A DNA stretch of 63,633 nucleotides, filler included, from Neolecta irregularis DAH-3 (taxonomy: Eukaryota): the NCBI GenBank assembly GCA_001929475.1. It is 18 parts of 18 records of this genome, joined end to end, with 100 filler letters (N's around TTAATTAATTAA, not from the genome) between each part and the next. Parts side by side here need not be neighbours in the genome. Positions count along the whole stretch, not along the records: positions 1 to 7,255 come from LXFE01001635.1; positions 7,356 to 13,331 come from LXFE01001636.1; positions 13,432 to 20,884 come from LXFE01001639.1; positions 20,985 to 23,475 come from LXFE01001642.1; positions 23,576 to 26,948 come from LXFE01001649.1; positions 27,049 to 28,851 come from LXFE01001650.1; positions 28,952 to 30,162 come from LXFE01001652.1; positions 30,263 to 36,166 come from LXFE01001655.1; 10 more parts are not named here. One strand, written 5' to 3'. Positions 67 through 57,773 of the stretch are shown in pieces. Position 1 is the first letter of the stretch. Every line of letters begins with the position of its first letter. A program made the translations under genes and the position numbers. The notes under the pieces were generated by a model. That model saw only the letters and a list, made by a program, of their open reading frames with translations. It was not told the origin of the DNA and did no database searches.

Positions 67-992
67 CTAATCGAGAACTTTACAAACAGGAACTCTATGG
101 GCCGAACAGGCAGTGTTGAACTCTGACGTTGGCAAATTCTTAAGATCTTCGCTGACGTTGAAAAAAAAGCAAGTGTTTTGAACAGACATGATCGCATCCT
201 GTGTAGGCGGACCAGCAGACCAGAGTGTGTTTCCATTACTCCACATGTTCAGCTTAACAGTACCAGCTACATATCGTCAACCCAGACTCAACCCAAGGAA
301 CTAGTACGTGTATGTTCAGTATTAACTCTGATAGTGCGCTCACGCTGTCCATCCGCAAAGAAGGTTGAACTTTTAGGCAGCCAATCGAACCTATATCTTA
401 CGAAATTGGTCCAAGGATTGGGTAAGACATTCGTGAACTGAGAGCCTCGTACAATAGGTTGTTGTGTATAATGGACGGCGCGGGTTGTAGGATCCTTTGT
501 GAGAATTTCAACATCAATTTCTTGAGTATCGTTCTGTCCGATCAGTTCCGGGTTATTATTAATCCATACGTAATAATAGAAGAATCCTGCACACGCACCT
601 GAAACAGGCTGCACTTTGAATGTAGATCGAAAGCTTCCATAAAGTATATCAGCTCTGACCGTGGATATTTCGCCACATAGTATTTTTCCCCGACCAGTAT
701 ATGCACTCACTTTGAGATTTAGTGATTTATTCTGAAAATAGACATTCTGGGGAAGAAACTGACGACCGATAGTAACTGTTCGATTGCCTGCGGCAACGTT
801 GCCATTGCTCCAATTAGAAATAGTCCATTGGGAAGAAAAAGAAGAATATGTAACATTTGTCATAGAAGGCGCGGTGAAATCTGAGTTCAACGTGTGTGTC
901 CAGAGCAATCCATTCGCTGTTTTGTATCCACATTCGCAGATAGCTTGTGACAGCTGGCTAGCCAGCGAGAAAACGATGAATATGAGAAGCAT
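67..992 (-). CDS. Secreted glycoside hydrolase family 16 protein (2 introns)
   Basis: Signal peptide MLLIFIVFSLASQLSQA; GH16 motifs YGSFR, GFFYY and catalytic QEIDVE. After a second intron the frame continues LNMWSNGNTLWSAGPP...CKVLD* to TAG at 67-69. In-frame 36-nt intron at 534-569. Confidence 0.85.
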
Positions 993-1227
993 AAATGCAG
1001 ATTATGGCTTGAAAGGCCTTCTTATAAATATTGTACGAATCGCCGGAGTGGGAATGAATGAATCATCGAGAATGTTTGGTGGAAAATCGAGATTCAGATC
1101 GTTTTGCCACACCGCCTCTGTATCTGCTTCCTATCCGATCGCATGTCATTGCCTCCTTTTGTCACAAGTCATATAAATTTTGTCGCCTCGATTTGATTTA
1201 ATTCCTTTGCTTTGTCGTTCTTTTACA

Positions 1228-2256
1228 ATGACACGCTTGACAAGATCAAAGTTTTTCGCAAATCGTCCAAGTCCGGGAAACTCCGGGAACAGATTACCAT
1301 TCCGGGACGATGATGGATCGACGAGTTACAATTCCGGAAAGATGGATCGACAGCCAAGCCCGAGTTCAGAAGTGAAAATCCTTACCAACACTCCGTTACC
1401 AGTCAAGAAATCAACTCCTCGAAAGCGCAAACTAGCCGAAAGTGTAATAGCACCTGATAACTGGGAGAGAGTATATGATGAAATCCGACTCATGCGAAAA
1501 AGCACCATTGCGCCAGTTGATACCATGGGATCCGACTGCCATTCACATAAAGATCCAAAAATTGGCCGATTTCACATACTTATTTCGCTTATGCTTTCAA
1601 GCCAGACCAAGGACATGGTCAACGCCGTAGTTATGGATCGATTGAAAGAACGAGGTTTGACGGTTCAATGGGTTTTAGGTGTTTCCGAAGCCGAGTTGGA
1701 TGAAGTCATCTACCCTGTCGGATTCCACAGACGAAAAGCTGGGTATATCAAAAATGCTGCAGTTATTCTAAGGGAGAAATATAACGATGATGTTCCGCCT
1801 ACTTTTGAAGAAGTTTTGAAATTACCAGGAGTTGGGCCAAAAATGGGAGTCTTGTTGATGCATTCTGCTTGGGACCAGTATGTTTTTACAAATCGTTCTT
1901 CTTACTTTAGAAATATTGGTATTGGGGTTGATGTTCATGTCCATCGTATCTCGAATCTTTTGGGTTGGGTTTCTACAAACACCCCTGAAGAAACCCGTCT
2001 ATGTCTTCAGTCATGGCTCCCTCCAGACCGTTGGCGAGAAATCAATCACTTGCTTGTTGGGTTTGGCCAGGTCATCTGTCTTCCTCGAGGACGAAAATGC
2101 GAAGAATGTCGACTGAGTAACGGCTTATGCCCGTCCGTCTCATTCAAACCAAAAAAGACAAGACGTGCAGAAACAAGGAAGCAAATCGATCGTGTTACGG
2201 AAGAGAAAATCAAGATTGAATTGCCAGATGTAGAAGATCTTGGGAGATTCATTTAA
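1228..2256 (+). CDS. NTH1: Endonuclease III-like DNA glycosylase/AP lyase (HhH-GPD, 4Fe-4S)
   Basis: LMLSSQTKD, HhH LPGVGPKM, VDVHVHRI, Fe-S motif CLPRGRKCEECRLSNGLC. 33-nt in-frame intron at 1878-1910. Start uncertain (first ATG 1228). Confidence 0.93.
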   Translation: MTRLTRSKFFANRPSPGNSGNRLPFRDDDGSTSYNSGKMDRQPSPSSEVKILTNTPLPVKKSTPRKRKLAESVIAPDNWERVYDEIRLMRKSTIAPVDTMGSDCHSHKDPKIGRFHILISLMLSSQTKDMVNAVVMDRLKERGLTVQWVLGVSEAELDEVIYPVGFHRRKAGYIKNAAVILREKYNDDVPPTFEEVLKLPGVGPKMGVLLMHSAWDQYVFTNRSSYFRNIGIGVDVHVHRISNLLGWVSTNTPEETRLCLQSWLPPDRWREINHLLVGFGQVICLPRGRKCEECRLSNGLCPSVSFKPKKTRRAETRKQIDRVTEEKIKIELPDVEDLGRFI

Positions 2257-3199
2257 GTTTATCTACCTCGACTTTTCTTCGTACTTCAAGCTTCCAATGC
2301 ACAGAGCTTCCAATTGCGAGGATTCTGGATACCTTTCCTCAACTTCCTGTTCACTATATCGAAGCTCGATGCCACTTTCCATGCCCATCGGCATTCAGCG
2401 CTCACATTGATTCATAGAGCTAGAGTCAAACTAAACCTTTTCTAGTTATTTCACAGAGTTCGCAACCCTTCATTCCCTGAATTAGGTTGAATATTAACAA
2501 ACTTGATAAATGTACATCGCTCAAAGTTGTCCAGCTTGCATCAAGTAATTTTGCATAAAGCAAAAACTAAAGGTAACAGCACAATTGGAGGTTTCTTTGC
2601 TGATTCTTCAGGTTGTTCAAGGAAATCATAGTAGGCGTAAAATGCCCTTGTAATACCGAGAACAATTATTAAGCAAGCGTTCTGAATAATGAATCTAGCT
2701 TTTGTGAGAACAATGCAAATCCAATTTCCGATCTACAGGCTTGCAGAGTCTCGACCGGGCCGGTGTTCTAGAACTTGTTCAACGTTGGATAAGGGGATTC
2801 TCAGCTGACCTGTTTTTATTGGCTGCATCCCCTTGGCCTTGTATTTCTAGTTGCGTGAGTGAATTATGATATATTGAGTGTTGCGCCTTCCACCATGCTC
2901 CCCCTAGATTTTGCATACGCACTCCTTGCTAAAGGGTAGCCTTACCTCAGAACCCCATGATACTCGAACGAGGGTCTTGAAGGATATTGTGCTATTGAAG
3001 GGAAAAGCCGGGATACGAAAAGTTCACGTCGACATGGCACGTGCGGGCGGGTTACCTGAGTGAAGGCGAGCCTTGGCTCGCCACAAGTTCTGCTTATCTG
3101 CATCTATCCTCCTGTGCAGCCAATTCTTCTATATCAGTTTGTGCTCTTTTCAGTCGGAAAGGACTCCTTTGAACCCTTTGGGCTGAGATCCGGCTCATT

Positions 3200-6100
3200 A
3201 TGGATACTCAGTCTAGCGCAGACGTTGGCAATACAAATAAGCCAGGAATTGACTTTGATGGTATCCTCGCGACGCTTCAGAACCTTAGCCCGAATGACCA
3301 ACGGCGAATCATGGCCGCGATGTTCCAGCCACAGCAACCGATACCGACGGTAGCAACTGCAGCTCCTACGGATTACCGAGAATATGTAGAGAACCGTTTT
3401 GTCGAACAGCAACTAAATGGTCAGAGACCATCTGATGGTCTTCAACATTCTGTAAATCAACACATGGTACATCATCCTCAATACCAGGCCCTACCAAGTC
3501 ACCAAACATCGAATTATATTTATGATCGAGGCCGTACGTTTTCTTCGAAAGGAAATGTCCCTCACCACGTTTCGTCGAGTGGACAACCTGTTACACCGCA
3601 TCTGTTGAATCGACCAGTTTCGACTGATTATGGAAACAATGCGCTAGCTTCTCAGAACGTACAACGACACCAGCAACAATTTCCAAGTATTCGACATCCT
3701 GGCACTCGACCATTTAAATCTCAAGACATGCAGCCGGCCCAAAACACAAATAAACCTTCATCTCTTCCACCTCGACGGACCTACAAGGCGTGTAATCCAC
3801 ATGCAAGTCAGATATCTCAGCAGCCTTCGGCTCAACTATCGCAGAGCGCGGATACTATGCGGCAGCAAAAGATTGTCTTTAGTCCCCTTGCCCAAATGCA
3901 GCCTCAAATTTGGACGATGGCCTCTAAGGCCCGTGGTGGTCGTGAACCAACTCTGCCGAGTCAATCTCAAGGTCCAGCGATTCCGCCATCAGAGGCATTT
4001 CGTCGATCGTATAATGCATCGCAACTTGCAATAGGACAACCTGCGAATTTCAATCCTTCAGTTCGAGTTTCTCCCCATGTAATGCGACCAACTGTCCCTC
4101 CTGTTCGACCGCAACCAATTCATACCGTTCGTCCTCAAAATGTCGAAACTAGTCATACTTCCCTTCCTCCGCCTTTTCAACAAACTCCTATTCAAAACTA
4201 TCCTGTTCAGCAGCCCGAGCGATCGTGGCAACCGTGGCATCTTTCTATACTCACCATGACCGCTGTATTTTTTTCGCGTGGAGAAATTGATCCCCAAGTC
4301 ATGCATCATAAAATAGCTCGATACGTGCATGAAAACCCCACGATGACATTAGAAGAACTTGTGGTTCTCATGCAAGATATGAACATCAACATCAACTATC
4401 AATCTGCACTGTATGCACTAACGACAACTCCATCGGAGTTTAAAAGTCTTGAAAAGAAGGCACTGTTAATGCGACAAAGTGTTCTTGTTCGTCAGGCGGA
4501 AGAGCGAAGCAGGATTCATCAAGGGAGCGAACCAGTCGTTTCAGTACCGGTTGGTCTGCAACCTAAACAACCCCCTCCGCGAGAAATTTCTCCCTTGAAT
4601 CTGGGTGGCGTCACCGCAGTGGACATCCTTTATACTTCTGGTTCTCTATACGATATATGGAGTAAGAAGAAGATGAATTCTGGACTGGATTGTTTGAAAA
4701 AGATCTTGCCTCCTGATACAGATTTATCGACGATAAATTGGGATGTTCTTGATCCGCCAAGCGGAAAACCTGCAGAACCAAACGCAATTGCTGCATATAC
4801 GATCGATTATTCCCTCTTTTCTAAGAGATTTGAGAAATTAAAGAGTCTAGGTCCTGTTGCAAGGATCGTCGAGATAGGAGGTTCTCCAAGAGTTGCTGAC
4901 AAAAGCGGTTCTAAACCCTCGGTTGTTGCAACGGCTAGTGATCTACGGGCTATACGGAGAGACTCGGAGGATGGCCGTAGTGATCCCGTGGTAAACGGCG
5001 AATGTTTGCAGACTCCTGGTCTGTTGAACCAGCCTGATTTGCCGGCTCGTGTACAGGTACCCAAGGCGGTCGAGACACATATCGCGCCATCCGATCCAAC
5101 GGTCGAGATTCCTTTCGACTCGGATCCAAAACCTCCATTTTCAAACTTGCAATCGCTTATTCCCATGGAAGTGGACGATCAGCCACCGCTAGTGATAGAT
5201 GAGGCTCCTGTCGAGGTTAGTAGAGGTGCTAGAGGTATACTATTGTTTCACATAATCGTCAGCTAATATTTGGAAGAAAACGTTGTTCAAAATACATCTT
5301 TTACGGATCTCCGGAGCGAGACTAATATTGCTCATGACTATGGAGCGCAGAGTACCATTTTGACGAAAAGCCACCTTGCTAACAGCCAGCTCGAAAAAAT
5401 CAATCTCTCAACGGGATCTCTGATAGCAATGTGGAGATGGTATCGATGTCAAATGTTGGGTCGTCTGGAGTCATTTCAAAAGTGAAATCATCGAATGCCA
5501 TATCTGGGCTTCACTCTGATGATAAATTTTTGCATTGGCATTGTCCTGGTCAAGGTATAATGGAAACGAAAGCGAATAACATGATAGATATTACAAGTCC
5601 ACTATTACAAATTGGACGTCGCAAGGCGCCCAGAGCTAGCAGGAAACGAAAAGCAAGTACGACAACTACACAAGGACAAGAACGGCGAAATCCAACGTCT
5701 ATGGTGATTGATTTAACTGGCGACGAGGACGGAGCTACAGAAACACAGAGAAAACAGGGANNNNNNNNNNAAGCTAGCAGGAAACGAAAAGCAAGTACGA
5801 CAACTACACAAGGACAAGAACGGCGAAATCCGACGTCTATGGTGATTGATTTAACTGGCGACGAGGACGGAGCTACAGAAACACAGAGAAAACAGGGAGA
5901 ATCGCCTTTGACAAGGGAAAATGAAATTCCGCGGTCATCGCAACGACAACAAAAACAAACGAGAAAACAGGGAGAAATGGAACCCTCTCTGACACCGGCG
6001 AATGACCCGCGGTCATCGCAACGACAACGACAACAAACAATCAAACAGGGAGAAACACAGAGAAAACATGAAGAAATGGAATCCTCTCTGACACCGGAGA

Positions 6101-7809: not shown

Positions 7810-9734
7810 CTAAGCTGGATAGTTTAGAACAAGGGATTGAGTTGAAAACATACTACTTTCTCTAATCACAAGGACAAGATTCTCCCATCCTGTTGAATGT
7901 CTCAACAGTTCATAATCTTCAATCTTTTTACTTTGTACAACCCGCCCAAGAGCTTCTTCTTCACTCTAGAATATTAATTAATTACAATGAAAGTATGATA
8001 CTTTCTCCAAGATTCCCATTCCCTTGATGAAAACAAGGAAATGGAAATCGGAAATCCTCTTGATAATCTCCTCTGTGATAGCACCACTTCTCACTCCAAG
8101 CGTCTTAGCAACATGACTAAGCTCCTGAGATTCGCCAAAGGTTTCTCTATTCTCAATAGGAAAGTCTGTAACAAACATGGCTTTAGGTTCACTAGGAAAT
8201 CCGTGCGTCAAACTTGCCAAAATGTAGTCGACCGGGAAGGCTGGTCTGGCATTTTCTTGAACTTGTACGTTATACTTATTTCGCCTTCGGTAGAATACTT
8301 CGGGTATATATCGATCATCCTCTTCTGGACAGACAAGGAGTTGCGAGGGGTCGGTACTTGGTTCGATGATGTCTGCTTCAACCATTGCCATGCCCGTATT
8401 CGAGATTTGATATGCTGACATTTCGATTCCTCCCTCGAGATTTCCAGAAATTACCACCGATACGAATTTTGAGCCAAAATAGCCCGTTTCACTCATTCTC
8501 GAGACATTTTTGTGAGAATTCTGCATTTTTGCACTAAATACAGCTTCAAGTGACGATAGAAAATACGAATCGATATGACGTTTGCATACGACTTTTGAAT
8601 CGCCGGCATCAGTCAAATCCGACCAAATCATTCCGACTTTTGTGAGTCCACAGCTCTGCGCTATAGAATCTATAGCATTTTCGTTTTCCCATGGCAAATG
8701 AATCTGTAGACCGTCTGTTTCGTTACGTTGAGGGGGTTCGTAGATTGTTTCAACGACTGCTTTTATTCCAAGAGGAACTTTATCATAAGGCTCGTAGCGC
8801 CCGTAGAGAAATCCAAAGCGTTGATGAGCTGATTTTCGCCAGGTATCGATGAATCTGTCAATGATCGAAGGGGCTGAAATCTCTACGTGATCGACCATTC
8901 GAAATGTCTAACAATTCAAGCTCAGAAGAGAGCTAGTGGAGTACCTGGGATTGCATGGTGATAGCACCAGGTTGACATTTCGAACAAATACCTTCGGGCC
9001 AAGGCGGATGACCAGAAGGGCAATTCTTTTTCACTTTGAAGTCCATTTCGCTTAATGGGGGAATGAAGGAAGTCCCCGAAGCATACTTATTCGTATGGGT
9101 ATTGAGCATTTTTAAGTAAGCATGAAATGACATGTGTTTAATCTTTTGGTCGTCGAGGTATTTTTGGTCAAAGGGCTTAATGGTCGATTAAAGTTTCAAT
9201 CAGAAAAACCACACCTCAAATGGAATGCAATGGTCGCACATTCCCTTCTCATTATGTTTGCACATTCGGTGATCGCGACCTCGGGGTATCTTTCCATCTT
9301 GTTTTTCGAGGAAATCGTCAACCGCATCCTGTTCTATTGAGATATGAGACTTCAACAGCTGCACATTGGGCAAAGGGAGGGTATGATCAAATTCTGGGTG
9401 ATGTTCCTCTCCCTGAACTTCCGAGTAGATCAGAAAGAATAAATCACCATGCCTGACATCAACCCGAAACCTTGTAAGATTACACGCGTACTTGAGGCCC
9501 ATCGTACTGATCTTTCGACCTTTTAAAGTTGTTAAAAGCTGACCTGGGTTCCCTGATGGGTGTGTTGAGATGGTCACAGCCCCAATTGGGACAAATTTGA
9601 GCTGCTCTTGAATCTTTTGTAAGTACGAAATGAATGAGAATGAAAGATACCATTTGAACGAGAAGCGCAGCGTCGTCGTTTGCCTCAATCTGAACCCTGA
9701 ACATTCCATCTCTGCTTCTGAAGCGGAGAAGCAT
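7810..9734 (-). CDS. NPL4: Nuclear protein localization protein 4 (Cdc48/p97 cofactor), 6 introns
   Basis: [13 protein letters not shown] start; [12 protein letters not shown] and [18 protein letters not shown] zinc fingers; [28 protein letters not shown]. Confidence 0.95.
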
Positions 9735-11021: not shown

Positions 11022-12545
11022 ATGAATGACAACGACTTTGCCAGCATTAGCTGGGACCGTGAAGACATAGTTACAGCTCCCGAAGACAAACAGAAACCTC
11101 CTCGAGTTATCATTAGAAATTCCATTGAAGCCGAATATACCCTCACAACCAAAGTTTCCAATCCACAGAAGGAGGCTGATACCACCAAAGATGCATATAT
11201 AAGCTATCTGGTAGTGACCGAGGCATCTTTCTGCTGCTGCGCTTCGATCTGATGGTATCCAGTCAAATAATCCGCAATTCAAATGTTCGATTACACGCGT
11301 CCGTCGACGATTTACTGATTTCGTTTATCTTCATACATGTCTTGTACGCGATCATCCAGCATGCGCTATTCCCCCATTGCCTGACAAACACAAAATGGGT
11401 AGAAAAGTTTTGCTGATTGCACTCACCAGTACAGAATACATTACTGGTGATAGATTTGGTCATGAGTTCACTTCTCGCCGTTGTTCATCTCTCAATAGTT
11501 TCCTTGTCCGGTTAACCTTACACCCAACGATCAGGAGGTCCAAGATACTGCTACTATTTCTCGAAAGCGAAGATTGGCATCAGTATATGCGAGCTGGAGG
11601 AGTCAATTCGCGGAATAATAGCATTTCACCAGAAGGAGGTGTGATTGATGGCTTCATGGTCACCATAATGAATGCGTTCAGCCGGATTCATAAACAAGAT
11701 AAGCAGTTTATCGATGATAAAGCTCGTGCAGACAAATTGGGCGAGGATTCTGCGAATGTGGAGAAGATGATTCTGAAGATTGTCAAGAAGCAGATTGGTA
11801 CGTGGTCTTCCAAAGGCCCAAATATGCTGAGTGAAAGATCTAGCCACCGATTATAGCGATTTTGGAGTTCAGTGGGCAAAATTGGTGCCGTTAGAACCTG
11901 GGTTGGCCAGTGCAATTACTGCACTTTGTCGTTCGCTGGAAGAGATGTCAAAGTGCACACATGAGCTGGTATCTGTTATTACAGCGGTATATGCTTAAGA
12001 CGCAGCGTGACGAGATCGACACTACCTATCTGACATCGCTAAAAGATTTGTCTAATTACGTTGTTTCACTCAAAACTCTCCTAAAACAACGAGATCAGAA
12101 GCAGCTAGACTTTGAAAGTTTAACTGAATATCTCAACAAGCTCGTTCATGAACGCGATGGGCTCGCCAATGGTGTCACTGCTGGTGGTTTTCTTCGGGGC
12201 AAAGTTGAAGACTTGCGAGGCGTGGACCATGAGGCTGCTCGAAAAGAGCGGCTGAGAAAGCTTGAACTTCGGGTTAAAGAACTTACTGTTGCTGTTGAGA
12301 GCTCTCGAATGGAAAGCGAGGCATTTGATGAAGAATGTGTCAAGGAAGTGGCGGTGTTCGAGAAGATTAAGGAGAGGGAAATGAAACCTGCCTTGAATGT
12401 CTTGACGAATGGCCATGTTGAGTATTACAAAAAGGTATAATATTTTTCCAGATTTATATCTGACACTAAGGTCATTGATGAATGGAGCGGAGCTATTGAA
12501 AGTTTGGAGAAACTTTTGGCTGAGAATCATGAATCTGAAGGGTAG
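11022..12545 (+). CDS. SNX4: Sorting nexin-4 / Atg24 (PX-BAR), 5 introns
   Basis: TKDAYISYL, VRRRFTDF, IPPLPDKHKMEYITGDRF, LKQRDQKQLDFESLTEYL, GKVEDLRGVDHE. Confidence 0.93.
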
Positions 12546-13773: not shown

Positions 13774-14798
13774 ATGGCCATCACGTCGCAGAATGCATCT
13801 AGTCTACTACCCTTCATATCCGACAAGAATCTATCACTGGTAGCGCCTGTTGCTATTTATTGGGTGTATTCCCTTTTCTTTGCGCTTATCTCCGCGCTCC
13901 AAGTCCCGTTTATCGAAAAGTATCGTCTTCACACCCCACTGGAACTCGTCACGCGCAATAAAGCGACGTTCAAACAAGTCGTTCGCGACGTGTTCATCCA
14001 GCAAACAATTCAAATACTCCTTGGGTGGATATTACTCGTAAATGAACCCGATGAACCCCTTGTTGAAACAGTCATTGAATTATCTAAAATCGATTCATTT
14101 TTAAAACCGATTACTGGACATTATTTTAGAAAGGAATTCGTAAAGTTGGTTTGGTTTATTGGAATACCGATTGCTCGCTTTGCATTTGCTTTGTACCTTT
14201 TTGCCTGGTTTTGGGTTGACTCTAGGGTTTTCCTGGATTCTTGGCAATATTTTCTTCATCGGATAATGCACCAAAGTCGATTTCTGTACAGGACGTTTCA
14301 CTCGCGCCATCATCGGTTATACGTGCCGTATGCATTTGGAGCGCTGTATAATCATCCTTTTGAAGGACTGTTGATGGATACAATGGGCGCTGGGCTGGCG
14401 TTCAAATTAAGCGGGATGAGTGTTCGACAAAGCTGTTATTTTTTTACGTTTAGCACCATGAAAACGGGTATTTTTGGGCCATGGAATGTGTTTTTTTTGT
14501 TGATTTGAATAGTTGACGACCATTGTGGATATGTGTTTCCGTGGGATCCGCTGCAGGTTTTCTTTGGCAATAATAGTGCATAGTATGTGTGTGTTGCTAC
14601 GGGGGCGATTGATGGGATATAGTCATGATATTCATCACCAGTCATATGGGATTAAACGCAATTACTCGCAGCCGTTCTTCACATTCTGTATGCGGATCCA
14701 CTGTATGGCTGCCTAACGGGCGTGTAGGGGACCGGTGGCTGGGGACGTACCTTGCGATATCTGATGTCCCGAGCACCACCGCGGCGAAGGAGGAGTAA
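13774..14798 (+). CDS. SUR2: Sphinganine C4-hydroxylase (fatty acid hydroxylase superfamily), 4 introns
   Basis: EKYRLHTP, DSWQYFLHRIMH, FHSRHHRLYVPYAFGALYNHPFEG, KTVDDHCGY, HDIHHQ..GIKRNYSQPFF. Confidence 0.93.
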
Positions 14799-14976
14799 TT
14801 AGGCGAATCACATGTATTTTGTTTCCGTTTCTTTAGGTGGGCTGGAGGTGGTCAATTTCCGCGTTTGTGATATCACTGCAACATTTCGCTGTTGTTACTG
14901 TAGTAATTAATGCCATTGATGGAGGCGAGGATGCGCAACACCTTCTTTTCCCCCACCGTCTCCCTGCTCGCGCGCC

Positions 14977-17037
14977 ATGGCGGGTCGCAGTTCTGCATCG
15001 GCAAACTGCACTGCCACGGCCATCGAAATCCACCGGCCGCCGCCTGCGGGCGCTCCTGCTGCAGCCGCGTCGCTCTCCAAGGCGGCGCGGCTGTCGCACT
15101 TTTTTGCGCACAAGGGGCCTGCTGCGGTCCTGCAGCTGCAGCCGGGCATCCACCCGCCGAGCCCGGGCCCCACCACCAGCCTGTCGCCGCCGCCCGGCTC
15201 CGCGCCCTGTACCGCCGCCGCCCAGTCTGCGCCCTGCACCGCTGCCGCCGCCCAGTTCGCGCCCCTGCTCTCCAGCGACCACCGCTACGTCTCGGCCCAC
15301 GCAGGCCCCGCGGAGCCCGGCGCCCCCATCGACGACGAGCCGCCCTACTTCTACCTGCTGACCACCTACTTTTCGTACCTGCTCTTCATCGTCACCGGCC
15401 ACATCCGCGACTTTTGGAGCAAGCGCCTGCGCAACCGCAGCGTCGCCCACCTCCAGGTCCACAACGTACCCGCCCCCCCCAGTTGCCCTGCTGACCCCGC
15501 CCCAGGGCTACGCGCCCCTCAACTCGGACTTTGACTCCTTCTACACCCGCCGCCTCAAGCTGCGCCTCGACGACTGCTTCAACCGCCCCACTACCGGCGT
15601 CCCCGGCCGCAGAATCACCCTGCTCGACCGCGCCTCCGCAGACTGGAACCACTCCTTCGCGCTCACAGGCACACACACCGACTGCCTCAACCTCTCCAGC
15701 TACAACTACCTCGGCTTTGCCCAGAGCCACGGCCCCTGTGCCGATGCCGTCGAAGAGGTCACGCGCAAGTACGGCCTCAGCAGCCTCTCGCCCCGCAACG
15801 AAATTGGTACTCCCCCGCCCGCACAGAGCCTCACCCCTAGGGTCCCTCGATCTGCTCGTGCAGACAGAGGCCCTCGTCGCCGCCTTCGTTCGAACAGAAG
15901 CAAGCCTTGTTTTCAGCATGGGCTTTGGCACGAACGCTACCGCCTTCCCCGCCCTCGTGGAAAAGGGGTGTCTGGTAATCTCTGACGAGTTCAACCATTC
16001 CTCGATACGCTACGGCGCCCGTCTGTCGGGGTGCTTTATTACCATCTTCAAGCACAACGATATGCAAGACCTGGAACGAGTGCTCAGAGAATACATCTCC
16101 CAGGGTCAGCGTAGAACTCACCGTCCTTGGAAAAAGATCCTCGTTGTTGTCGAGGGCCTGTATTCCATGGAGGGAAGCATGTGCAATCTCCCCGGCTTGA
16201 TTCGTTTAAAGGACCGCTACAAGTTCTATCTCTATGTAGACGAGGCCCATTCTATCGGTGCTCTCGGCCCAAACGGTCGCGGTGTATGCGACTACTTTGG
16301 CATTCCCCCCTCTCGAGTCGATGTCCTCATGGGCACTTTGACAAAATCTTTTGGTGCCTCGGGCGGTTATATTGCTGGCTCCAAAGCTCTCATCAATAAA
16401 GTCCGTCTTCGAAACGCAGGTTGTATCTACACTGAAGCCCCCTCTCCAATCATCCTCCAACAAATTCAAACCGCTCTCCAAATAATCATGGGCAACATCA
16501 ACCCTGGCGAAGGTGCCGAGCGTTTGCAGCGATTGGCTTTTAATTCGAGATACCTGAGGTTGGGCTTAAAGAGACTCGGCTTTATCGTATACGGACATGA
16601 TGATTCACCAGTAATTCCGTAAACATCCACTTGTCACCTTTGTCATTAATTGCCCAGGTTACTCTTGTACAATCCTGCCAAAATGCCAGCATTTAGTCAC
16701 GAATTACTCAAGCGAAAGATTGCAGTCGTGGTAGTCGGATATCCCGCCACTCCTCTTGTAACCTCTCGGTAAATGTCTCTCTTTCACCCTGCTTATCATT
16801 AGCGTACGTTTCTGCGTCTCGGCAGCCCATAATAAAAACGACATGGACCAGCTTCTTTACGCATGTGCCGAAGTCGGAGATCTCCTTCAACTTCGTTTCT
16901 CAAGCGGAGTAGCCGGTCAAGATCTCAACGTTACAAAAGCCGTTGATGAAAAGTTTCGCATAGAGCCTAGATGGGACGTTGAGAAAGTCATTGCCTGTGG
17001 CGTTGAAGACGCTAAAAAGACACCCTCCACGCTGTAA
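14977..17037 (+). CDS. LCB2: Serine palmitoyltransferase catalytic subunit, 4 introns
   Basis: [45 protein letters not shown] and PLP-lysine motif [13 protein letters not shown]. Confidence 0.96.
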
Positions 17038-17274
17038 TAGCATTTCTTTTTGTGTGTATGGTTGCAAGACGGGATTCTTTGGATGTGGTAACGATATTGT
17101 CTAGAAATAATAATTACCTTATGACTTTGAGCCCTATTATCCCGGCATATTCCCTCTAGGGTTACTCATCTTTGATGCTCATTCAGTGTTCAATAAAATG
17201 ACATAAATCAGCTATCGTAAAGTCTGCCCTTTGGCGTTTACAGTCCGCTTCGTGAAGATGACTCCATTCATAGT

Positions 17275-17696
17275 CTAGACTGTATTTCTCAATATCAACA
17301 CAACGCTATCACCGCGCAAAAACATTTTACTAACAAACCGATCTTTATTAACAGCTTTTCCTTTCTTTCCCTTTGCATTTCTCGGCCGTTCAGTCCACAT
17401 CTTGAAAAATCAGCTTCTAAACTCATATTCAACGAACCTCTTTTACGTTCTCCAAGACCAAATTACAGTGTCTATCAAACGCCTTTACACGTGCTAGTAA
17501 TTTTCTATTGTTTCTGCAATTGATGAGGACTTGATTGTGATTTTTCACGGCTTGGGAAAGAACGCTAAGTGGACCGTGAGCGAATTCATATTCTTCAAGA
17601 GCGAGTAAATCGGCTTCGGTAAGTTCTGCCCGGGGACGTCCTACGAATTCGCTGAAAAGGTTAGGTTGAGAATGTACTGTGGGAAAGATACGCCAT
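17275..17696 (-). CDS. SMD2: Spliceosomal Sm core protein D2 (2 introns; not in the ORF track)
   Basis: Spliced translation [77 protein letters not shown]...[24 protein letters not shown]. Confidence 0.95.
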
Positions 17697-17909: not shown

Positions 17910-19387
17910 ATGTCGATATATCAGCCATGCCTGGCTTCGCTGCTGGGCGTAGCCAAACCCAAATCACCCATTTTATCGAAGATTACCAGTCGTTTTGCGC
18001 AATATAGGTATCACAATAGATGGCTTTCCGGTAGTACACTCGCAAAGTCTCCAACTAACGGTTCAAGTGCGCAAGATGGCTACTTTTCAACGTACCCTTC
18101 CTCATTTGAATATTGGAACCATTGGGCATGTAGATCATGGGTATACATAATCAACAAGAGCAATTGACCGAGGTTTAGAAAAACCACTTTAACCGCTGCT
18201 ATTACAAAGACTCTTGCTGAAAAAGGGCAAGCTGCTTTTATGGATTATAACCAGATTGATAAAGCTCCAGAAGAAAAGGCTCGAGGGATTACTATCTGTA
18301 CAGCCCACGTTGAATACCAAACCAACAATCGTCATTACGCCCATGTCGATTGTCCCGGTCACGCCGATTACATCAAAAACATGATTACTGGTGCTGCTCA
18401 GATGGACGGTGCAATTATCGTTGTCTCTGCCACAGATGGACAAATGCCTCAAACTCGTGAACATCTACTTCTTGCTCGTCAAGTCGGTGTAAAACACCTC
18501 GTGGTTTATATCAACAAAATAGACGTAATCGACGATCCCGAGATGCTTGAACTCGTAGAAATGGAAATGCGGGATTTGTTAGGAACGTACGGGTTCGATG
18601 GTGAAATGACGCCTATTATCATGGGATCTGCTCTATGTGCTTTGGAAGGTCGAAACCCGGAGATGGGAGCAGAGTCAATTGGAAAACTAATGGATGCTAT
18701 TGATTCACATATCCCGACGCCCAAACGTGTGCTCGATAAACCATATTTGATGCCTGTTGAAGACGTATTTTCGATTTCTGGAAGAGGAACTGTTGCCACG
18801 GGTCGTGTAGAACGAGGAATCCTCAAAAAGGGTGATGAAATCGAACTCATTGGATATGGAGATCCCATGAAAACTACTGTGACTGGTATTGAAGCTTTCA
18901 AAAAAGACCTTGGTACATCTCTTTCCATTACCATCTAACCAAAATAGATCAAGCAATGGCTGGAGACAACTGTGGTCTTTTGCTTCGAGGTGTTAAACGA
19001 GAACAAATAAAGCGAGGAATGATTATCTGTGCGCCAGGAACCGTCAAAGCTCATACAAAAGTACCTTTTTCCAATTTAGCAATTTAGTCTAATTGCAAGT
19101 TCCTTGCCTCATTTTATATCCTCAACAAAGAAGAAGGAGGTCGAAGAACAGGGTTCATCAATGCATACAGACCACAAATGTTTGTTAGAACATCAGACGT
19201 TACAATCACCCTGCGTCACCCTGACGGAGTCGAAGACGGTGAAAACAAAATGGTCATGCCTGGAGATAACGTCGAATTGGAATGCGAATTGGTTCACAAT
19301 ATCGCTTTAGAACAAGGACTGCGATTTACTATTCGTGAAGGAGGGAAGACTGTTGGTACAGGTCTAATTACCAAGCTACTTGATTAA
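17910..19387 (+). CDS. TUF1: Mitochondrial elongation factor Tu, 4 introns
   Basis: Basic presequence; [55 protein letters not shown]. Confidence 0.97.
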
Positions 19388-20066
19388 ATCGTGTCATCTT
19401 GGGTGAAATAATATGTTCATATAGAGAGTTTACAATAAAAGACATTTCCAAATTCTACTTTATTAATATCATTGCCCATCTCTCCAGATGATCCTCCTAA
19501 CCCTAACCAAACTGTGGGAGAGGCAGGCGCACAGTGGCCTCCTTCATGCTCTATATATACCGGATCATGACAATAACATGGGCGGGACGTTTGGTCAGAG
19601 TAACCGTAGTGCTTGGTGTAGTCATTCTTTGTAGAGGGATATCATCCATATTCCCGGTACATTCTAAATCTGTTGCAAAAATAGTGAAAAGACGGAGTAA
19701 AGTGAGGGAGAGGCACGATTGCACCAGTGGGGGAATGAAGGGGCTGTGCAATATGACGATGCGGTTATTGTTCAGACTCTTTCTTGGAGCTCTTGCAGAA
19801 TTACTTGTTATAGAGGTGTAAACGGATATTGTTGAGGTATCCGGACACTAGATGTGACAATAGGCAATTGTGAAACAAACTTTATTGAGGGTGAGACGAG
19901 CCACTGTAACGGTGAGTTGGTCTTGTCCTTTATATACATAGTCAATAACATTACTTGCTACCCCTTGTCTTGCCATCCAAAGCATTAGGTCTGTTCGCGT
20001 GTAAACCTACTGCTTACAAGAGGCAGGAAAAGACAGTCATGTCAATGGTAGGGTTGCGCTGCAGTC

Positions 20067-22022: not shown

Positions 22023-23375
22023 ATGACCTCCAAAACTCTCCTCGTTGCATTCCTGCTCAGAATCGCTCTGTCATACACCCCCCATCTCGCCCATCGCCTC
22101 GAAAACAGAGTAGAACTCGTTACACCAGTCACCTCCTACCGCAGACGTCTCTTCTGGTTAGGGTCCGCTCATCTCTAGTCAAAGAAGGCCTTTTTCTCTA
22201 CCGCAGAGACGTCCCGCCCTATGACGGCGGTGTATTCCACCAGTCCCCCATCATCCTGGCCCTATTCTCGGTAATACCAGAATCCCTCGTTCCCCTCCTC
22301 TTTGCCGCTGTAGACGTGTTTTGTGCATGGATCGTTTCACGCATCGCAACACACAGAGCCCTCGACAGACCTTGGATCTCCGCTTCTCTGTCCTTCCCTG
22401 CCTAGCCCTGCTGACCACAGATATGCATTCAATCCATATACCCTGGTATCCTGTCTAAGCAAAACAACAGGCCTCTTCACAAATGCTGCTGTCCTCGTCG
22501 CAGTCCTCGGCGCATGCGAGGGTACCCCACCTGCCTCCCTTGGTTCACCCCGCAGGAAATATCGCTACCAGCATGATGGCCGGCGCTATCGCAGCATACC
22601 TCGAGCTCTACCCACTCCTCTTTCTCCCGCCTCTCATCCTCCTCCTCAACGACTCGAAAAAATCAAACGTCGCCCTAAAGTCTCTCGTCATCTTCACCGC
22701 CACGGTCGCTGGTTTACTTGCATCAAGCTACTTTCTCATAGACTCGTGGAACTTTATTGAATCCACTTATGGAGCCATGTATTCTCTCCTCTTTCCTTCT
22801 AACTCCCAGCCTCTTTGTCCACGATTTAACTCCAAATATCGGTCTCTGGTGGTACTTTTTCATCGAAATGTTCAACTCCTTTCGCGCATTTTTTACAGTC
22901 GTCTTTCAATTGCACCTGGTAATTTACGTTGCCCCTCTCTGCATCAAACTACGGTTCGTCTCCTTATATCCCGTCTTATATAGAAACAACCCCCTCTTCG
23001 TCTGCGTCATCATCTCAGGAATAATCTCCATCTTCAAATCCTACCCTTCGGTCTCGGATTTATCCCTCTTCCAGAATCTCCTCTTTTTCTTTCCAGAAAT
23101 TTTCTCTCGTGCGCCCTTCAACTACAAAATTGACTCTAGGCATGCGCTATACTTTTTTCTCCACCTCCACTCTCTTATACACCACCCTCCTCGGTCCCGC
23201 ATTTTATCATCTGTGGATTATCAGTGGAACAGGTAACGCAAACTTTTTCTACGCAATCACTCTAGTACACACCCTGGCCCAAACCGTCACCCTCAGTGAC
23301 GCACTCTACGCCATGCTCAGACTCGAATGGGATTTACAAACGGGAAAACACGGAATAAAAGTCTTTCAAATTTGA
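22023..23375 (+). CDS. GAB1: GPI transamidase subunit PIG-U/Gab1, 6 introns
   Basis: RVELVTPVTSYRRLKEGLFLY, PYDGGVFHQSP, DLTPNIGLWWYFFIEMF, FKSYPSVSD, GTGNANFFYAITL. Confidence 0.95.
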
Positions 23376-31738: not shown

Positions 31739-31803
31739 GAAGTCACAGTATAACCATTACATCTGAATCATCAAATATTTACACATGAGTCATCAGTTAT
31801 TCA

Positions 31804-38886: not shown

Positions 38887-39579
38887 ATGGCAGCGGTATC
38901 TCCGTCATTTCTCTCTCAATTTTGATTAACAGATACGTCCATCTGACGCTAAGCTTACTGATGCCTTTAATCTTTACGACAAGAAAGGAAATGGTCGTAT
39001 TCCTTTGAAGAGCTTGGGTGATTTACTAAGAAGCGTTGGCCAGAATCCGACGCTCAGGGAAGTAGCAGACCTGGAGGAAGAAGTCGGTGGCGATGGTACT
39101 TAATTTATTTTTCTGAGGACTGAACACTGTTTGATTGGAGTATACGAATATTGGCTTGGGCTACTTCTCTTTTGTCCATTCTCTCACAATCTCTTTCTAG
39201 CATTTATTTCAACGTTCTTATACTGACCAAATCAGTCGACTTTGCAACATTTAGAGCACTCGCATCACGACCCGAAGCTTATGGTCCTGCATCTAATCCA
39301 GAGGATTTTGCCCGTGGTTTCCAAGTCTTTGATAAAGACATGACGGGATATATCGGTGTCGGAGAACTACGATATGGTTTGTTGCGTCCATATTTACTAC
39401 TTGATGTCTTTTAGTGTTGACTTCACTTGGTGAAAAACTTTCAGATGAAGAAGTTGATGAACTTTTGAAGGGGGTCAATATCGGTAAGAACGGAGAAGTC
39501 AATTATCAAGGTAAATTTTGAGGTATCTCTACAATCAGCTAATGCTACAGAATTTGTAAGAATGATTCTTGCAGGATGA
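38887..39579 (+). CDS. cdc4: Myosin essential light chain (EF-hand; S. pombe cdc4/MLC1-like), 4 introns
   Basis: [77 protein letters not shown]. Confidence 0.95.
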
Positions 39580-42492: not shown

Positions 42493-42658
42493 GGCTTTGA
42501 CGAATTCATGAATCTCGTAGTCGACAACGCAAAAGAAGTCCATGCGAAAAAAGATACAAAGAGGCCTCTAGGTGCTTTCTCCTTCTCCCTCGCTCATCCT
42601 AGGTCGCATCCTGCTAAAGGGCGATAACATCACTCTCATAGAACCTATCCTGTTATAA
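42493..42658 (+). CDS. SME1: Spliceosomal Sm protein E, 3' exons
   Basis: GFDEFMNLVVD...PL|GRILLKGDNITLI. Confidence 0.9.
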
Positions 42659-42989
42659 TATGATACTTCTGTAACCTTTTCCTATTGTTCATATTCAATT
42701 ATATCCTGGTGTACTGTTCAAAAATCATCTAAAAAATTGGTTGCTTTTCTTTGTAGCAGTGTCATCCTTGTGCAGGGGCCATGCTCTAAATCTGTCAGAC
42801 CCGTGTCTCGAACGCACGACGCGCGCCAAACTTACAATCTTCTCTGTATCGTTACAATGTGACCAAATGCCCCGAAGGGCATCAGTACATATTAATTACT
42901 CTTTATATCCAGCTTTATTCCCGCAAATTTCCAAGGGGATCGTATCTGCATTCAGGAATCTCGCCAAGTTCGACCTCAACTCTCTCTCG

Positions 42990-43590: not shown

Positions 43591-43592
43591 CA

Positions 43593-51215: not shown

Positions 51216-51962
51216 AAACTCTTCCTGTGTTGGAGGCAATTGCTGGTAATTTTGGTGGTTTTCCTCAGATTCACTGAATTAGTGTTGACTGTGGGATTCT
51301 GTATGTGGCCATGGTGGCTTTAGTGAGGTAAATTGCTATATGGATTATGCCCAAGCATACTTCCACCTTTTATTACAGAATTAGGCACAGTACCAGCAGC
51401 AGATGAGTGGATTGACAAGATGGGCAGGCAGGTAGGAGTGAGGGACAGGTGGGTAGGAGTGAGGGATAGGCAGGCAGGCTGGAGTGAGGGACAGGCACAA
51501 TGGATGGGAACAATTGCACTGGCAGGAGGGAGGGACAGGTGGGCAGGAGGGAGGGACAAGTGGGTGGGAGGTAGGGGCAGGCATGATAGAGGGGAACAGG
51601 TGAGTGTGTGGGAGGGAGGGAAAGGTGCATGGGAAGGAAGTAAAGATATGTAGAATGGTGGGAGGGACAGGCAAATGGGAGGGCAGGAGAAATAGGTGCA
51701 TAGTGGGAAGGAGGGAAAGGTGTGCAAGAGGGTGGGAGGGTGGTTGGGAAAGGTGTACAAGAGGGTGGGAGGGTGGTTGGGACAAGAGGGCAGGATGGCA
51801 GGAGGGCAGGAGGGCAGGAGGGCAGGAGGGCAGGAGGGCAGGAGGGCAGGAGGGCAGGAGGGNNNNNNNNNNNNNNNNNNNNNNNNNNNNNNNNNNNNNN
51901 NNNNNNTTAATTAATTAANNNNNNNNNNNNNNNNNNNNNNNNNNNNNNNNNNNNNNNNNNNN

Positions 51963-55496: not shown

Positions 55497-56581
55497 CTGT
55501 TAAGCAGAGTAGATAAACTTATGAAGTAATAATAATCGGCATTTGTATGATAAATGTGATCTATCCTGTTCTTCCTTATGATCACCCTCTGTTAAAATGT
55601 TTTGTCATGTGGGATCAAAGTTGGGTGTTGTTTTATTTTAGATAGGAAGAATATCTATGTTTAATTAACCTTGATTATTACAGACAGAGGGAATTTCAAG
55701 CATTGCCATTTATTCAATCTTGATGCAACGGCCTGGAGAGAGGTTCATGCGGACGAGTCGTACGAGACCCATTATTCACAACCTTTTCAAGTATTAATCA
55801 CCGTTTACCGTGGGACCTCACTCCTCCTACAATCTCGCCCCTTTCCTTTCACCTACCTTTCACCCTCTGAAACAGGCGACTCTGGAAGTCACTGGCTATT
55901 TGATTCCTCTTCTTGCAGCCTAAATCCCTGGTAATCGTCCTCCGCTTTCTCTCGGCTGCCTTCTCCGTGCTCAAATTCAACACATTCGCCAGACATCAAG
56001 GTCACCCTTTCTACCTTTCTCTTTTATATAGTTTCTCTCTAATAGTTTGTTCTTTTTCTAGGTAGCTCGCGTTCTCCCCAGGAAAAACGGGATGAATGGT
56101 TATCTCTTTTCTTTAAACAGTCGTTTCCCCTAACTGAAATGCAATCTTTTATTTTCTTTTTTATCTCGCCATCTCATATTATTTAATCCCTCAACACACT
56201 CTCCTATCACCCAAATTATTGCCTCTTACCCGAAGCAAAGCTATCCAAATATTCCCTCGAACCTTCCCGACTTACAACTTGCGTGTTTCAAGCAGTAGAT
56301 GGAATCTGCAGTTGGCTCTTTGTGGAACCGAAGGTGGCTGGCATCTGAGAGCTTCGGTCATGGACAGACTTGCTAACAAGTAAGTCGTTCAAGTCAGACT
56401 TGCTTGCTTACTTGTTTATAAGCAAGTAANNNNNNNNNNNNNNNNNNNNNNNNNNNNNNNNNNNNNNNNNNNNTTAATTAATTAANNNNNNNNNNNNNNN
56501 NNNNNNNNNNNNNNNNNNNNNNNNNNNNNCGCACCAGCCCGCAGGTATAAAGACGTGGCGGCCAGGGGCTGCCGCTCCCCC

Positions 56582-57098
56582 ATGCGCGCCGCAGTGCTGC
56601 TTGCCCTCGCCGGCTGCGTCCTCGCCGACACCCCCGCCTGCGTCATCACCTGCGTCAACAAGGAATCCTCCTGCAACATCAGCGACACAAAGTGCCTCTG
56701 CACCGTCGTCGGCTCCGACGTGCTGCTGTGTCTCGGCCAGACGTGCCCCACAGGCCCCGGCACGCAAAGCTTCAAGAGCACCTGCGAAAGCTTTGGCTAC
56801 ACCGTCGGCGGCTCCAGTACGCTCCCGTGTCCCCCGTTGCTGATCCGTGTCCAGGTGCTAAAGACTCGGCCGCATCAAAAGACGCGTCCTCCACAAAAGA
56901 CGCGTCCTCCACAAGTGCGCCCCCGTCGTCCGCAACAAACCCCTCAAAGACTACGTCTGCTTCTGCCTCGTACTCCCCTTTTGCTTCTCTGCTCACCCCA
57001 GCGGTCAATCCGCTGCCGGCTCCCCTAAAAGTGTCGCTGCCCTCTCTTCTGCACACTTGCTCCTAGCCTTTTGGAGTCTGCTGGTCATTCTCGTCTAG
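56582..57098 (+). CDS. CFEM-domain GPI-anchored protein (2 introns)
   Basis: Signal peptide; 8-Cys PACVITC..C..DTKCLC..C..C..C pattern with the conserved Asp; S/T linker; hydrophobic tail LLLAFWSLLVILV*. Confidence 0.85.
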
Positions 57099-57164
57099 TC
57101 CCTAATCTGATTCCAATATAATACATCTTCCTTGATCCTATGTCTACTCGTGATTCTATCTTGA

Positions 57165-57773
57165 TCACCGAACCCTCCCCCCCCTTGGAAACTCCCTACT
57201 CTCTTCCGTCGCCCACCTTGCAACCATCCCAGAGTACTCCTTTGCTCTCGCCATCAGCTCGGCTTTCCCCCCTGTCCGATACTTGGTCACCTTGCTCACA
57301 TTATGCATAGTCACCGCTGACGCCTCCTCCCCCTTATTGTTCGCCCGCGCTATAGCCATCGCCGTCATCGTGTACAACATATCCCGAGGCCCGTCCACAA
57401 GCTCAAGAATAGCCTGAGGCGCATTGTCCCCATACCGGGGCGGCAGCCGAAGCACCCGCGTATACCCCCCGGGTCGCTCCCGGTACCGCTCCGCAAGCTC
57501 CCCAAACACCTTGGGCAACGTCCGCCCATGATCCTGCAATCAGCAATCTTCCGGCACATCTCCTACAAATAACTTGGCCATCGCTCCGCCCCTGTTTGAT
57601 CCCTTCTTCCCCAGTGTAATCACCTTTTCGGCAACACTCTGCGCTTCCTTGGCTTTAGGCCACGTCGTAATAATAGACTCGTGCAGAAACAGTGAAGAAA
57701 CAAGGTTCCTCAACAATGCTGACCGAGCCCCCATAGTCCTGCCCAGTCTCCTCGCATCTGGTTTGATTGGCAT
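57165..57773 (-). CDS. MRPL8: Mitochondrial ribosomal protein bL17m (1 intron)
   Basis: [60 protein letters not shown]. Confidence 0.92.

Follow-up and report, generated by a model that had tools for sequence, protein, structure and literature searches.

How much donor sequence does a spliceosome need once spacing carries information? The window analysed here raises this question. It comprises 63,633 bases in 18 contigs of 1.0–7.5 kb from the ascomycete Neolecta irregularis DAH-3, separated by spacers (N44-TTAATTAATTAA-N44), and its genes are interrupted by very short introns with an unusual 5' splice site (donor) consensus. As argued below, these are probably genuine U2-type GT-AG introns at near-minimal size, defined by a unit of branch site and acceptor together with spacing, with position +5 of the donor left free. 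N. irregularis is an early-diverging member of the Taphrinomycotina; according to the accessible part of PMC5309816, its genome is 14.5 Mb (N50 16 kb, 44% GC, 5,546 genes), fruiting bodies supplied both the DNA and the RNA for sequencing, and RNA sequencing (RNA-seq) supports 99.4% of the genes. Pfam and homologue searches identified ordinary fungal housekeeping genes in the window, with matches to NPL4, a PX-domain protein, a fatty-acid hydroxylase, a class I/II aminotransferase, EF-Tu, PIG-U/GAB1, an LSM-domain Sm protein, an EF-hand protein, THOC1, RPA43, and Sec7, as well as LCB2, i.e., serine palmitoyltransferase.

The Curated Intron Set

We curated 43 mRNA introns on nine of the 18 contigs, in at least 14 unrelated housekeeping genes (Table 1); the approximately 59 introns built by hand in the initial annotation were reproduced in part. 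Fifteen introns are exactly missing from transcript-like contigs of a public run, X2; 11 were placed by homologue scans blind to splice dinucleotides; two (SNX4 1 and 4) were taken from a deposited protein, P0241; and 15 were placed by frame and stop constraints combined with the reading of conserved motifs or Pfam matches. In the homologue scans, all excisions of 9–200 nucleotides (nt) with any terminal dinucleotides were made, and the spliced peptides were scored against 6–10 homologues. Introns proposed by an ab initio exon chainer were entered only with a second line of evidence.

The transcript joints come from contig 3 (positions 13432–20884). The fraction of its sampled words present in two public runs was 0.97 for X1 and 0.66 for X2. 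Contigs of X1 were colinear with this stretch and skipped none of the 15 segments; contigs of X2 skipped all 15, which are 33–45 nt long and bounded by GT..AG in 15/15 cases, two of them appearing as CT..AC, i.e., on the minus strand. The depth of X2 was zero in two intergenic bins of the contig. From its joints and from the zero depth between genes we infer that X2 is like complementary DNA; the run record says only "DNA?", and no runs recorded as RNA were listed for this stretch. All nine introns predicted beforehand on contig 3 (a, b, and c of the SUR2-like gene, 1–3 of LCB2, and a, b, and c of TUF1) matched X2 joints to the base, and the X2 joints added six that had not been predicted.

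In the blind scans, a GT-AG solution was the unique best or in the top tie for LCB2 1–3, NPL4 A and B, GAB1 1, 3, 4, 5, and 6, and SNX4 2 and 5, and lay near the top for GAB1 2 and SNX4 3. The donors returned in this way include GTCTCT, GTACCC, GTAAAC, and GTACTC. Of the seven odd donors singled out by the initial annotation, five have transcript or homology support: GTACCC and GTAAAC in LCB2 are X2 joints as well as tops of the scan, GTCTCT and GTCCTT in GAB1 are the best and a near-best solution, respectively, and GTAGAA in SNX4 begins a segment that is also spliced out in P0241. Its GTGCTT in SME1 and GTGCCC in THOC1 are candidates from frame constraints, each being the one GT-AG excision that keeps the frame and gives that reading.

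Donor Sequences

Intron lengths ranged from 30 to 140 nt with a median of 37 nt, and 41/43 lay within the 30–47 nt that the initial annotation had given for nearly all of them, the exceptions being 52 and 140 nt. In these 43 introns +5 carries no information: the counts were A 11, C 10, G 11, and T 11, a relative entropy of 0.01 bit. The frequency of +5G (11/43; 95% confidence interval, 14%–41%) was no different from the 23% found in controls, i.e., 6348 other GT..AG segments of 30–45 nt in the window (p = 0.72), and was far from 85% (p = 4e-18). By class of evidence, +5G occurred in 4/15 introns defined by transcript joints, 4/11 from homologue scans, 0/2 from the deposited protein, and 3/15 from frame and motif reading. 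Canonical GTRNGT donors, the pattern that would speak against a degenerate consensus, made up 3/43 overall and 1/15 among the transcript-supported joints.

Donor information is still present but has shifted towards the exon. A G at -1 was present in 27/43 introns, against a background of 24% (p = 1e-7; relative entropy, 0.57 bit), and +3A was strongly enriched (31/43; 0.64 bit). The donor keeps only about (A)G/GTA, followed by pyrimidine-rich sequence, with C or T at +4 in 35/43 and at +6 in 33/43. When -1 and +5 were considered together, 21 donors were -1G/+5H, 11 were -1H/+5H, six were -1G/+5G, and five were -1H/+5G. The initial annotation had counted about 20 +5G donors in 59 and about a dozen with neither -1G nor +5G, and the curated set has 11/43 in each case; its description of a relaxed donor code is right for +5, but the donor is not wholly relaxed, given the enrichment at -1 and +3. 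Extended complementarity between donor and U1 is typical of U2-type introns, although not strictly defining. Such complementarity (GTRAGT-like, with +5G) is lacking here, the mean match to CAG/GTAAGT being 4.7/9 in an earlier set of 37 introns.

Among the 21 introns that have neither RNA support nor +5G, three have an in-frame GT-AG alternative with +5G (excisions of 25–100 nt), i.e., GAB1 1, where homology excludes the alternative, THOC1 c, and the GH16 intron. With only these three, the ceiling for +5G is 14/43. Alternative donors are possible at THOC1 c, at the GH16 intron, and at the first intron of the long open reading frame (ORF) from 3200.

Branch Site, Acceptor, and Spacing

The 3' half of these introns is tightly specified, with a putative branch site, YTNAY, near an HAG acceptor. 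A YTNAY motif whose A lies 5–12 nt from the 3' end was present in 39/43 introns, compared with 764/6348 controls (12%; Fisher p = 2e-31). In 37 of the 39 this A was 6–11 nt from the acceptor end, and in 37 of the 39 the 5' splice site was 23–35 nt upstream of it, which fits the earlier proposal of definition by length and branch-to-AG geometry. The best branch-like motifs were CTAAC (6), TTAAT (5), TTGAC, TTGAT, CTGAC, and CTAAT (4 each), CTTAC (3), CTCAC, CTTAT, CTGAT, and CTCAT (2 each), and TTCAC (1). The degenerate forms noted previously (CTCAT, CTCAC, CTTAT, and CTTAC) thus account for 9/39, and CTRAY types for 16/39. Acceptors were TAG in 17 introns, CAG in 14, AAG in 11, and GAG in one. 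AAG is thus a frequent acceptor, and the branch A is often merely 6–7 nt from the acceptor, which leaves no room for a polypyrimidine tract.

The U6 Gene and the Class of Intron

The initial annotation had raised the possibility of an altered U6. The window contains a U6 small nuclear RNA (snRNA) gene (Table 1), and in the Rfam alignment both its ACAGAGA box and its AGC triad are unchanged, so that an altered U6 is not supported and the late machinery contacting +4 to +6 looks ordinary. An Rfam scan with a cut-off as loose as E 0.5 revealed no further snRNA in the window. Directly 5' of its AGC triad, the U6 gene is interrupted by an mRNA-type intron with a canonical GTAAGT donor and CTGAC 9 nt from its TAG; canonical donors are therefore still present in Neolecta. 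The U6 intron of Schizosaccharomyces pombe is placed at the same site, beside the AGC triad (PMC5855946), which suggests that the insertion may be old and shared within the Taphrinomycotina, or else recurrent.

With all 15 transcript joints GT..AG, splicing here is of the ordinary U2 type with an unusual consensus, and "novel system," as the initial annotation had it, is an overstatement; the branch-like motif in 39/43 introns and the intact U6 boxes are likewise as in U2-type splicing. U12-type introns have the donor RTATCCTT and the branch motif TCCTTAAC. None of the 43 introns starts with GTATCC, the nearest starts being GTATCT (twice) and GTATCA (once). Nor do the donors belong to the right-handed class of fungi, since information is 0.01 bit at +5 versus 0.57 at -1 and 0.64 at +3, with -1H/+5G in only 5/43. 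What is common is the left-handed combination, -1G/+5H, at 21/43.

How the 5' Splice Sites Might Be Chosen

The reading that we prefer would operate as follows. Spliceosomal introns would have been minimised to about 30–45 nt, and under intron definition the unit of branch site and 3' end, with a short fixed spacing, would set the 5' splice site. Contact with U1 would be limited to a few pairs round the junction (-2 to +3), as in the "left-handed" donor type, and the later check by U6 would accept any base at +5. Once information was carried by spacing, the consensus from +4 to +6 would be free to decay. The data establish the splicing of 15 introns, the composition and geometry of the set, and an intact U6; beyond that, spacing would in effect replace donor sequence, under proofreading tolerant of any base at +5.

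A more specific proposal, which we advance tentatively as one possibility, is that the 5' splice sites are set mainly by a ruler from the branch site within a 30–45 nt intron and that early recognition has been re-tooled, perhaps through retention of a LUC7L3-type factor, through changes in U1C or the U1 5' end, or through U1 binding that largely dispenses with pairing. If this ruler and re-tooled recognition were real, Neolecta would be the first fungus with mostly exon-side or unpaired donors and a free +5.

Several points weigh against definition by the branch-acceptor unit and spacing. The single intron of 140 nt means that length is no absolute rule. The excess of pyrimidines at +4 and +6 comes partly from the introns being pyrimidine-rich, with 61% C+T in their interior. 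The cis grammar that can be stated is not specific enough: a GTA start, a length of 30–47 nt, an HAG end, and YTNAY at 5–12 nt match 201 places on both strands, of which only 26 are curated introns, so further information must come from strand, exon context, or trans factors. U1 and the proteins of the 5' site lie outside the window data, and tolerance, as opposed to co-evolved factors, is something that we infer. The 43 introns were sampled from 63 kb, in a genome of 14.5 Mb; RNA evidence covers 15 of the 43, and another 15 were placed by frame logic with motif or Pfam reading; and the "DNA?" in the record of X2 is itself a guess at its type, its transcript-like nature being our reading of the joints.

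The main rival holds that co-evolved trans factors (a U1 with a changed 5' end, or a U1-associated protein of a kind that other fungi do not have, such as a LUC7L3-type paralogue or an altered U1C, Prp28, or Prp8) are primary and the short length secondary. Such a factor would stabilise donors without intron-side pairing, and the idea is compatible with the cis picture. The donor ratio is indeed reversed, 21 -1G/+5H versus five -1H/+5G, in the way that the model in the accessible part of PMC11842720 ties to a LUC7L3-type factor. However, the window data hold nothing on U1 or LUC7; U6, the sole snRNA seen, is unchanged; and +5 shows no shift towards a different base but is uniform, which gives no indication of a simple compensating change in U1. 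We regard trans factors as the primary cause as rather unlikely.

It is very unlikely that the window is unrepresentative, i.e., that an odd subset of genes on small contigs has been sampled and that donors are ordinary genome-wide. Although the window covers 0.4% of the genome and its contigs are shorter than the N50, the genes are numerous, unrelated, and spread over nine contigs, and both the confidence interval for +5G and its counts in the four classes of evidence speak against such a bias.

The data here already largely refute an artefact of reconstruction, in which the true junctions would be nearby GTRNGT donors and the degenerate ones products of misplaced boundaries or assembly errors, and we consider it extremely improbable. 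Errors of this kind did occur: an automatic model chose GTGCAT at 14576 where the transcripts show GTATGT at 14583, and the initial boundaries of SNX4-4 and SNX4-5 were wrong, both of which inflate apparent donor degeneracy; the assembly also has frame breaks. However, a single transcript joint in 15 is GTRNGT, blind scans also return odd donors, and +5G cannot exceed its ceiling of 14/43. Removal by another route, whether U12-type splicing or a non-spliceosomal tRNA-type or IRE1-type cut, can practically be dismissed, because although the lengths are below what many spliceosomes accept, every joint is GT..AG, a branch-like motif lies at a short fixed distance in 39/43, and RTATCCTT occurs in 0/43.

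Comparison with Known Systems

Fungi are the textbook case of intron-side donor reading, a habit that a model in the accessible part of Kenny et al. (2025; PMC11842720) links to loss of one LUC7 subfamily. In that part of the paper, the donors of all fungi analysed are strongly biased on the intron side and little on the exon side, and in two intron-rich fungi -1H/+5G donors are 4–15 times commoner than -1G/+5H; most fungi lack the LUC7L3 subfamily, which favours left-handed donors, but a Mucoromycota species with more exon-side donors has it. With the opposite pattern, and with introns near the smallest size for joint occupancy by U1 and U2, Neolecta offers a natural test of this co-evolution model.

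S. pombe, known for its own +5G donors, belongs to the same subphylum as Neolecta; it and other fungi with intron definition also share with Neolecta GT-AG ends, a CTRAY-like branch site near the acceptor, the lack of any extended polypyrimidine tract, and recognition across the intron, to which S. pombe adds the split U6 gene. Where they differ is in the donors, which in fungi are intron-side biased with +5G (PMC11842720, accessible part), whereas those of Neolecta have a uniform +5 and a -1G/+3A bias, in introns with a median of 37 nt. The left-handed 5' splice sites of animals and plants are, in the same part of that paper, depleted in fungi and tied to LUC7L3, and they differ from the Neolecta set in that 11/43 of its donors have neither -1G nor +5G. 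The likeness lies in the 21/43 donors that are -1G/+5H, in which pairing with U1 would depend on exon bases and on positions +1 to +3.

In ciliates and similar lineages with minimal introns, as in Neolecta, the donor is reduced to about GTA. Ciliate introns, about 25 nt in Paramecium, are also near the lower size limit with narrow lengths, to judge from the available part of PMC5014332. They differ in belonging to another kingdom and in being 15–25 nt long, whereas the introns of Neolecta are 30–45 nt with a clear branch-like motif. In Cryptococcus the donor keeps +5G. Cryptococcus neoformans is, like Neolecta, intron-dense with short introns (mean 63 base pairs in the accessible part of PMC8476143), those of Neolecta being about 40% shorter.

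Literature searches on Neolecta and its subphylum turned up no description of Neolecta splice signals, although Supplementary Table 1 or the Supplementary Methods of PMC5309816 may hold intron statistics; the terms "intron," "splice," "RNA-seq," and "transcriptome" occur 0 times in its main text. In the parts available, PMC8476143, PMC7940399, and PMC10878826 refer to Neolecta in passing and give intron numbers or positions only.

Individual Introns and Gene Models

Table 1. Positions of the 43 curated mRNA introns, and of the U6 gene and its intron, in the window. Donors are given as the last three exon bases (lower case) and first six intron bases, with a slash at the junction.
Feature	Position	Strand	Length (nt)	Donor	Placement
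SUR2-like (fatty-acid-hydroxylase) intron	14193..14225	+	33	ttt/GTACCT	X2 joint, not X1
SUR2-like intron	14468..14512	+	45	cgg/GTATTT	X2 joint, predicted beforehand
SUR2-like intron	14583..14622	+	40	ata/GTATGT	X2 joint, predicted beforehand
SUR2-like intron	14688..14727	+	40	tct/GTATGC	X2 joint, predicted beforehand
Unnamed transcript, intron	14898..14941	-	44	aag/GTGTTG	X2 joint, CT..AC on plus strand
LCB2 intron	15466..15505	+	40	aac/GTACCC	X2 joint; top of blind homologue scan
LCB2 intron	15807..15840	+	34	ttg/GTACTC	X2 joint, not predicted
LCB2 intron	16619..16657	+	39	tcc/GTAAAC	X2 joint and homologue scan
LCB2 intron	16769..16802	+	34	tcg/GTAAAT	X2 joint and homologue scan
Unnamed gene, intron	17401..17437	-	37	gag/GTTCGT	X2 joint
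TUF1-like (mitochondrial EF-Tu) 5' part, intron	18031..18067	+	37	ccg/GTAGTA	X2 joint
TUF1-like intron	18141..18178	+	38	tgg/GTATAC	X2 joint, predicted beforehand
TUF1-like intron	18913..18947	+	35	ttg/GTACAT	X2 joint, predicted beforehand
TUF1-like intron	19061..19099	+	39	aaa/GTACCT	X2 joint, predicted beforehand
Unnamed gene, intron	19989..20022	+	34	tag/GTCTGT	X2 joint; position uncertain within 3 nt
NPL4 intron A	9176..9214	-	39	gag/GTGTGG	13-residue insert with stops versus homologues; scan top tie
NPL4 intron B	8908..8944	-	37	cag/GTACTC	Top tie of blind scan
NPL4 5' part intron	9614..9650	-	37	atg/GTATCT	Frame change and reading; homology too weak for scan
NPL4 in-frame intron, uncertain	9453..9491	-	39	caa/GTACGC	Reading only; homology too weak
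NPL4 3' part intron C	7966..8001	-	36	aaa/GTATCA	Alternative 7917-7985, 69 nt, GTAATT
GAB1/PIG-U intron 1	22147..22178	+	32	gac/GTCTCT	Single best scan solution, 10 homologues
GAB1/PIG-U intron 2	22390..22420	+	31	tct/GTCCTT	Scan 529 versus 542 for a non-GT-AG 76-nt deletion
GAB1/PIG-U intron 3	22522..22555	+	34	agg/GTACCC	Scan top tie
GAB1/PIG-U intron 4	22779..22809	+	31	cat/GTATTC	Single best scan solution; same splice in P0278
GAB1/PIG-U in-frame intron 5, uncertain	22954..22983	+	30	acg/GTTCGT	Homologue scan, PIG-U profile
GAB1/PIG-U intron 6	23109..23139	+	31	ctc/GTGCGC	Scan top tie; same splice in P0278
SNX4 intron 1	11211..11262	+	52	ctg/GTAGTG	P0241 reads ...ISYL/SNNP; alternative 11214, GTGACC, 49 nt
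SNX4 in-frame intron 2	11399..11434	+	36	tgg/GTAGAA	Scan top tie, 1527 versus 1307 for read-through; absent from P0241
SNX4 intron 3	11798..11837	+	40	ttg/GTACGT	Scan 870 versus 884 for shifted placements; agrees with P0241
SNX4 intron 4	11969..12005	+	37	ctg/GTATCT	P0241; scan favours length 37
SNX4 intron 5	12435..12470	+	36	aag/GTATAA	Scan top tie; agrees with P0241
Endonuclease III (NTH1-like) in-frame intron	1878..1910	+	33	cca/GTATGT	HhH-GPD profile 1-70 upstream, 71-108 downstream
Long ORF 3200-6966, intron	5235..5276	+	42	gag/GTATAC	Frame and stop constraints only; two other donors possible
Long ORF 3200-6966, intron	5352..5389	+	38	aga/GTACCA	Sole GT-AG solution
THOC1 intron a	24334..24364	+	31	gag/GTACAA	efThoc1 profile ends at 242 in upstream exon, starts at 243 in next
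THOC1 intron b	24491..24522	+	32	gag/GTGCCC	One solution in coding phase; flanks are efThoc1 243-268 and 293-388
THOC1 intron c	24838..24871	+	34	gcc/GTCGAC	Frame constraints, ambiguous; alternative GTATGA, 34 nt
SME1 (Sm E) intron	42572..42602	+	31	tag/GTGCTT	Upstream exon is LSM domain 27-49
EF-hand light-chain-like intron	39096..39235	+	140	atg/GTACTT	EF-hand matches in both flanking exons
EF-hand gene intron	39377..39414	+	38	atg/GTTTGT	Frame and motif reading
EF-hand gene intron	39511..39550	+	40	aag/GTAAAT	Frame and motif reading
Sec7-domain gene intron	28163..28195	-	33	aag/GTAAAT	Upstream exon is Sec7 profile 106-145
GH16 gene intron	267..307	-	41	cac/GTACTA	Alternative 267-301, GTTCCT; +5G in neither
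U6 snRNA gene	42732..42880	-			Rfam RF00026, 70.2 bits
mRNA-type intron in U6	42786..42835	-	50	GTAAGT	GTAAGT...CTGAC...TAG, directly 5' of AGC triad

The deposited Sorting nexin-4, P0241 [Neolecta irregularis DAH-3], was 93% identical to our SNX4 query over the whole length, and the query had translated a 12-residue in-frame intron (intron 2) as coding. The homologue scan alone does not separate the 52-nt form of SNX4 intron 1 from alternative placements. Earlier placements of SNX4-4 at 11969-11999 and SNX4-5 at 12422-12451 were ruled out by P0241 and the scans.

For GAB1 intron 2, there are only two in-frame GT-AG solutions. For intron 5, homologues favoured removal (1004 versus 815 for read-through), and the read-through exceeds both the homologues and the PIG-U profile by 10 positions. 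The start of P0278 lies downstream of the first three GAB1 introns, so that this deposited-style model looks truncated. A gene finder that has learned from fungal donors will overlook introns such as these or set their boundaries wrongly. P0278 keeps the 30-nt in-frame segment of intron 5 as coding, and such errors affect every comparative study that uses the Neolecta annotation.

In NPL4, the scans of N1 and N2 scored 106 and 146, the homology being weak; for intron C, the scan preferred the 69-nt GTAATT excision to the 36-nt GTATCA one (508 versus 356), with +5G in neither. A PDB search gave no match for THOC1 exons a and b, and for exon c a weak match to THO complex subunit 1 (E 5e-4). The NTH1-like intron was also read by eye against what we take to be the family motif, and the downstream exon of SME1 was read from what is presumably its conserved motif. 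The 140-nt intron of the EF-hand gene, the only long outlier among the 43, keeps CTGAC 9 nt from its CAG.

One junction, in an RPA43-like gene at 43326-43363 (+), was left out of the intron counts: no in-frame GT donor there joins the exon that ends in ...GEFI to the exon that starts with GDVNLQSPDHIGLL so as to yield the expected protein. Either 37 nt with GA..AG ends are excised, or there is a 25-nt intron, GTATAT..TATAG, or the assembly is in error.

The automatic exon chainer over-chained across genes and invented introns. One of its introns, 15375-15423, falls inside the LCB2 coding sequence, and its models in a broken SF3B3-like region were also rejected. That SF3B3/Rse1-like frame (45400-46150, minus strand) has a TAA near 45597 in place of a conserved Tyr; its frame is broken and much of its middle is missing, and it is a pseudogene, a fragment, or a misassembly of a splicing-factor gene.

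Other Observations

On contig 3, the minus-strand introns at 14898 and 17401 are spliced in an X2 contig that carries plus-strand SUR2-like and LCB2 exons, so transcripts from opposite strands abut or overlap there. In the Sec7 gene, at about 28135-28165 (minus strand), a mini-exon, KKMELSDF, follows the 33-nt intron and is itself followed by a one-base frame shift at a run of four Ts, which is either a homopolymer error of the assembly or a real frameshift. A long ORF at 5383-6966 (plus strand) contains tandem repeats of ~36 residues (...SSLTPENDPRSSQRQQKQTIKQGETQRKHEEME...); an N10 assembly gap at 5761-5770 lies inside the repeat, and the sequence on either side of the gap is duplicated.

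Several paralogous Ser/Thr/Ala-rich frames at 30265-35299 (minus strand) share N-terminal blocks (...NFTV.NSGLLT); they gave no Pfam match, and resemble a tandemly arranged family of proteins that are secreted or belong to the cell wall. Finally, translations read by eye revealed a gypsy-type reverse transcriptase-like fragment and a DDE-transposase-like frame at 61086-61547 and 50772-51300, respectively, both on the minus strand.

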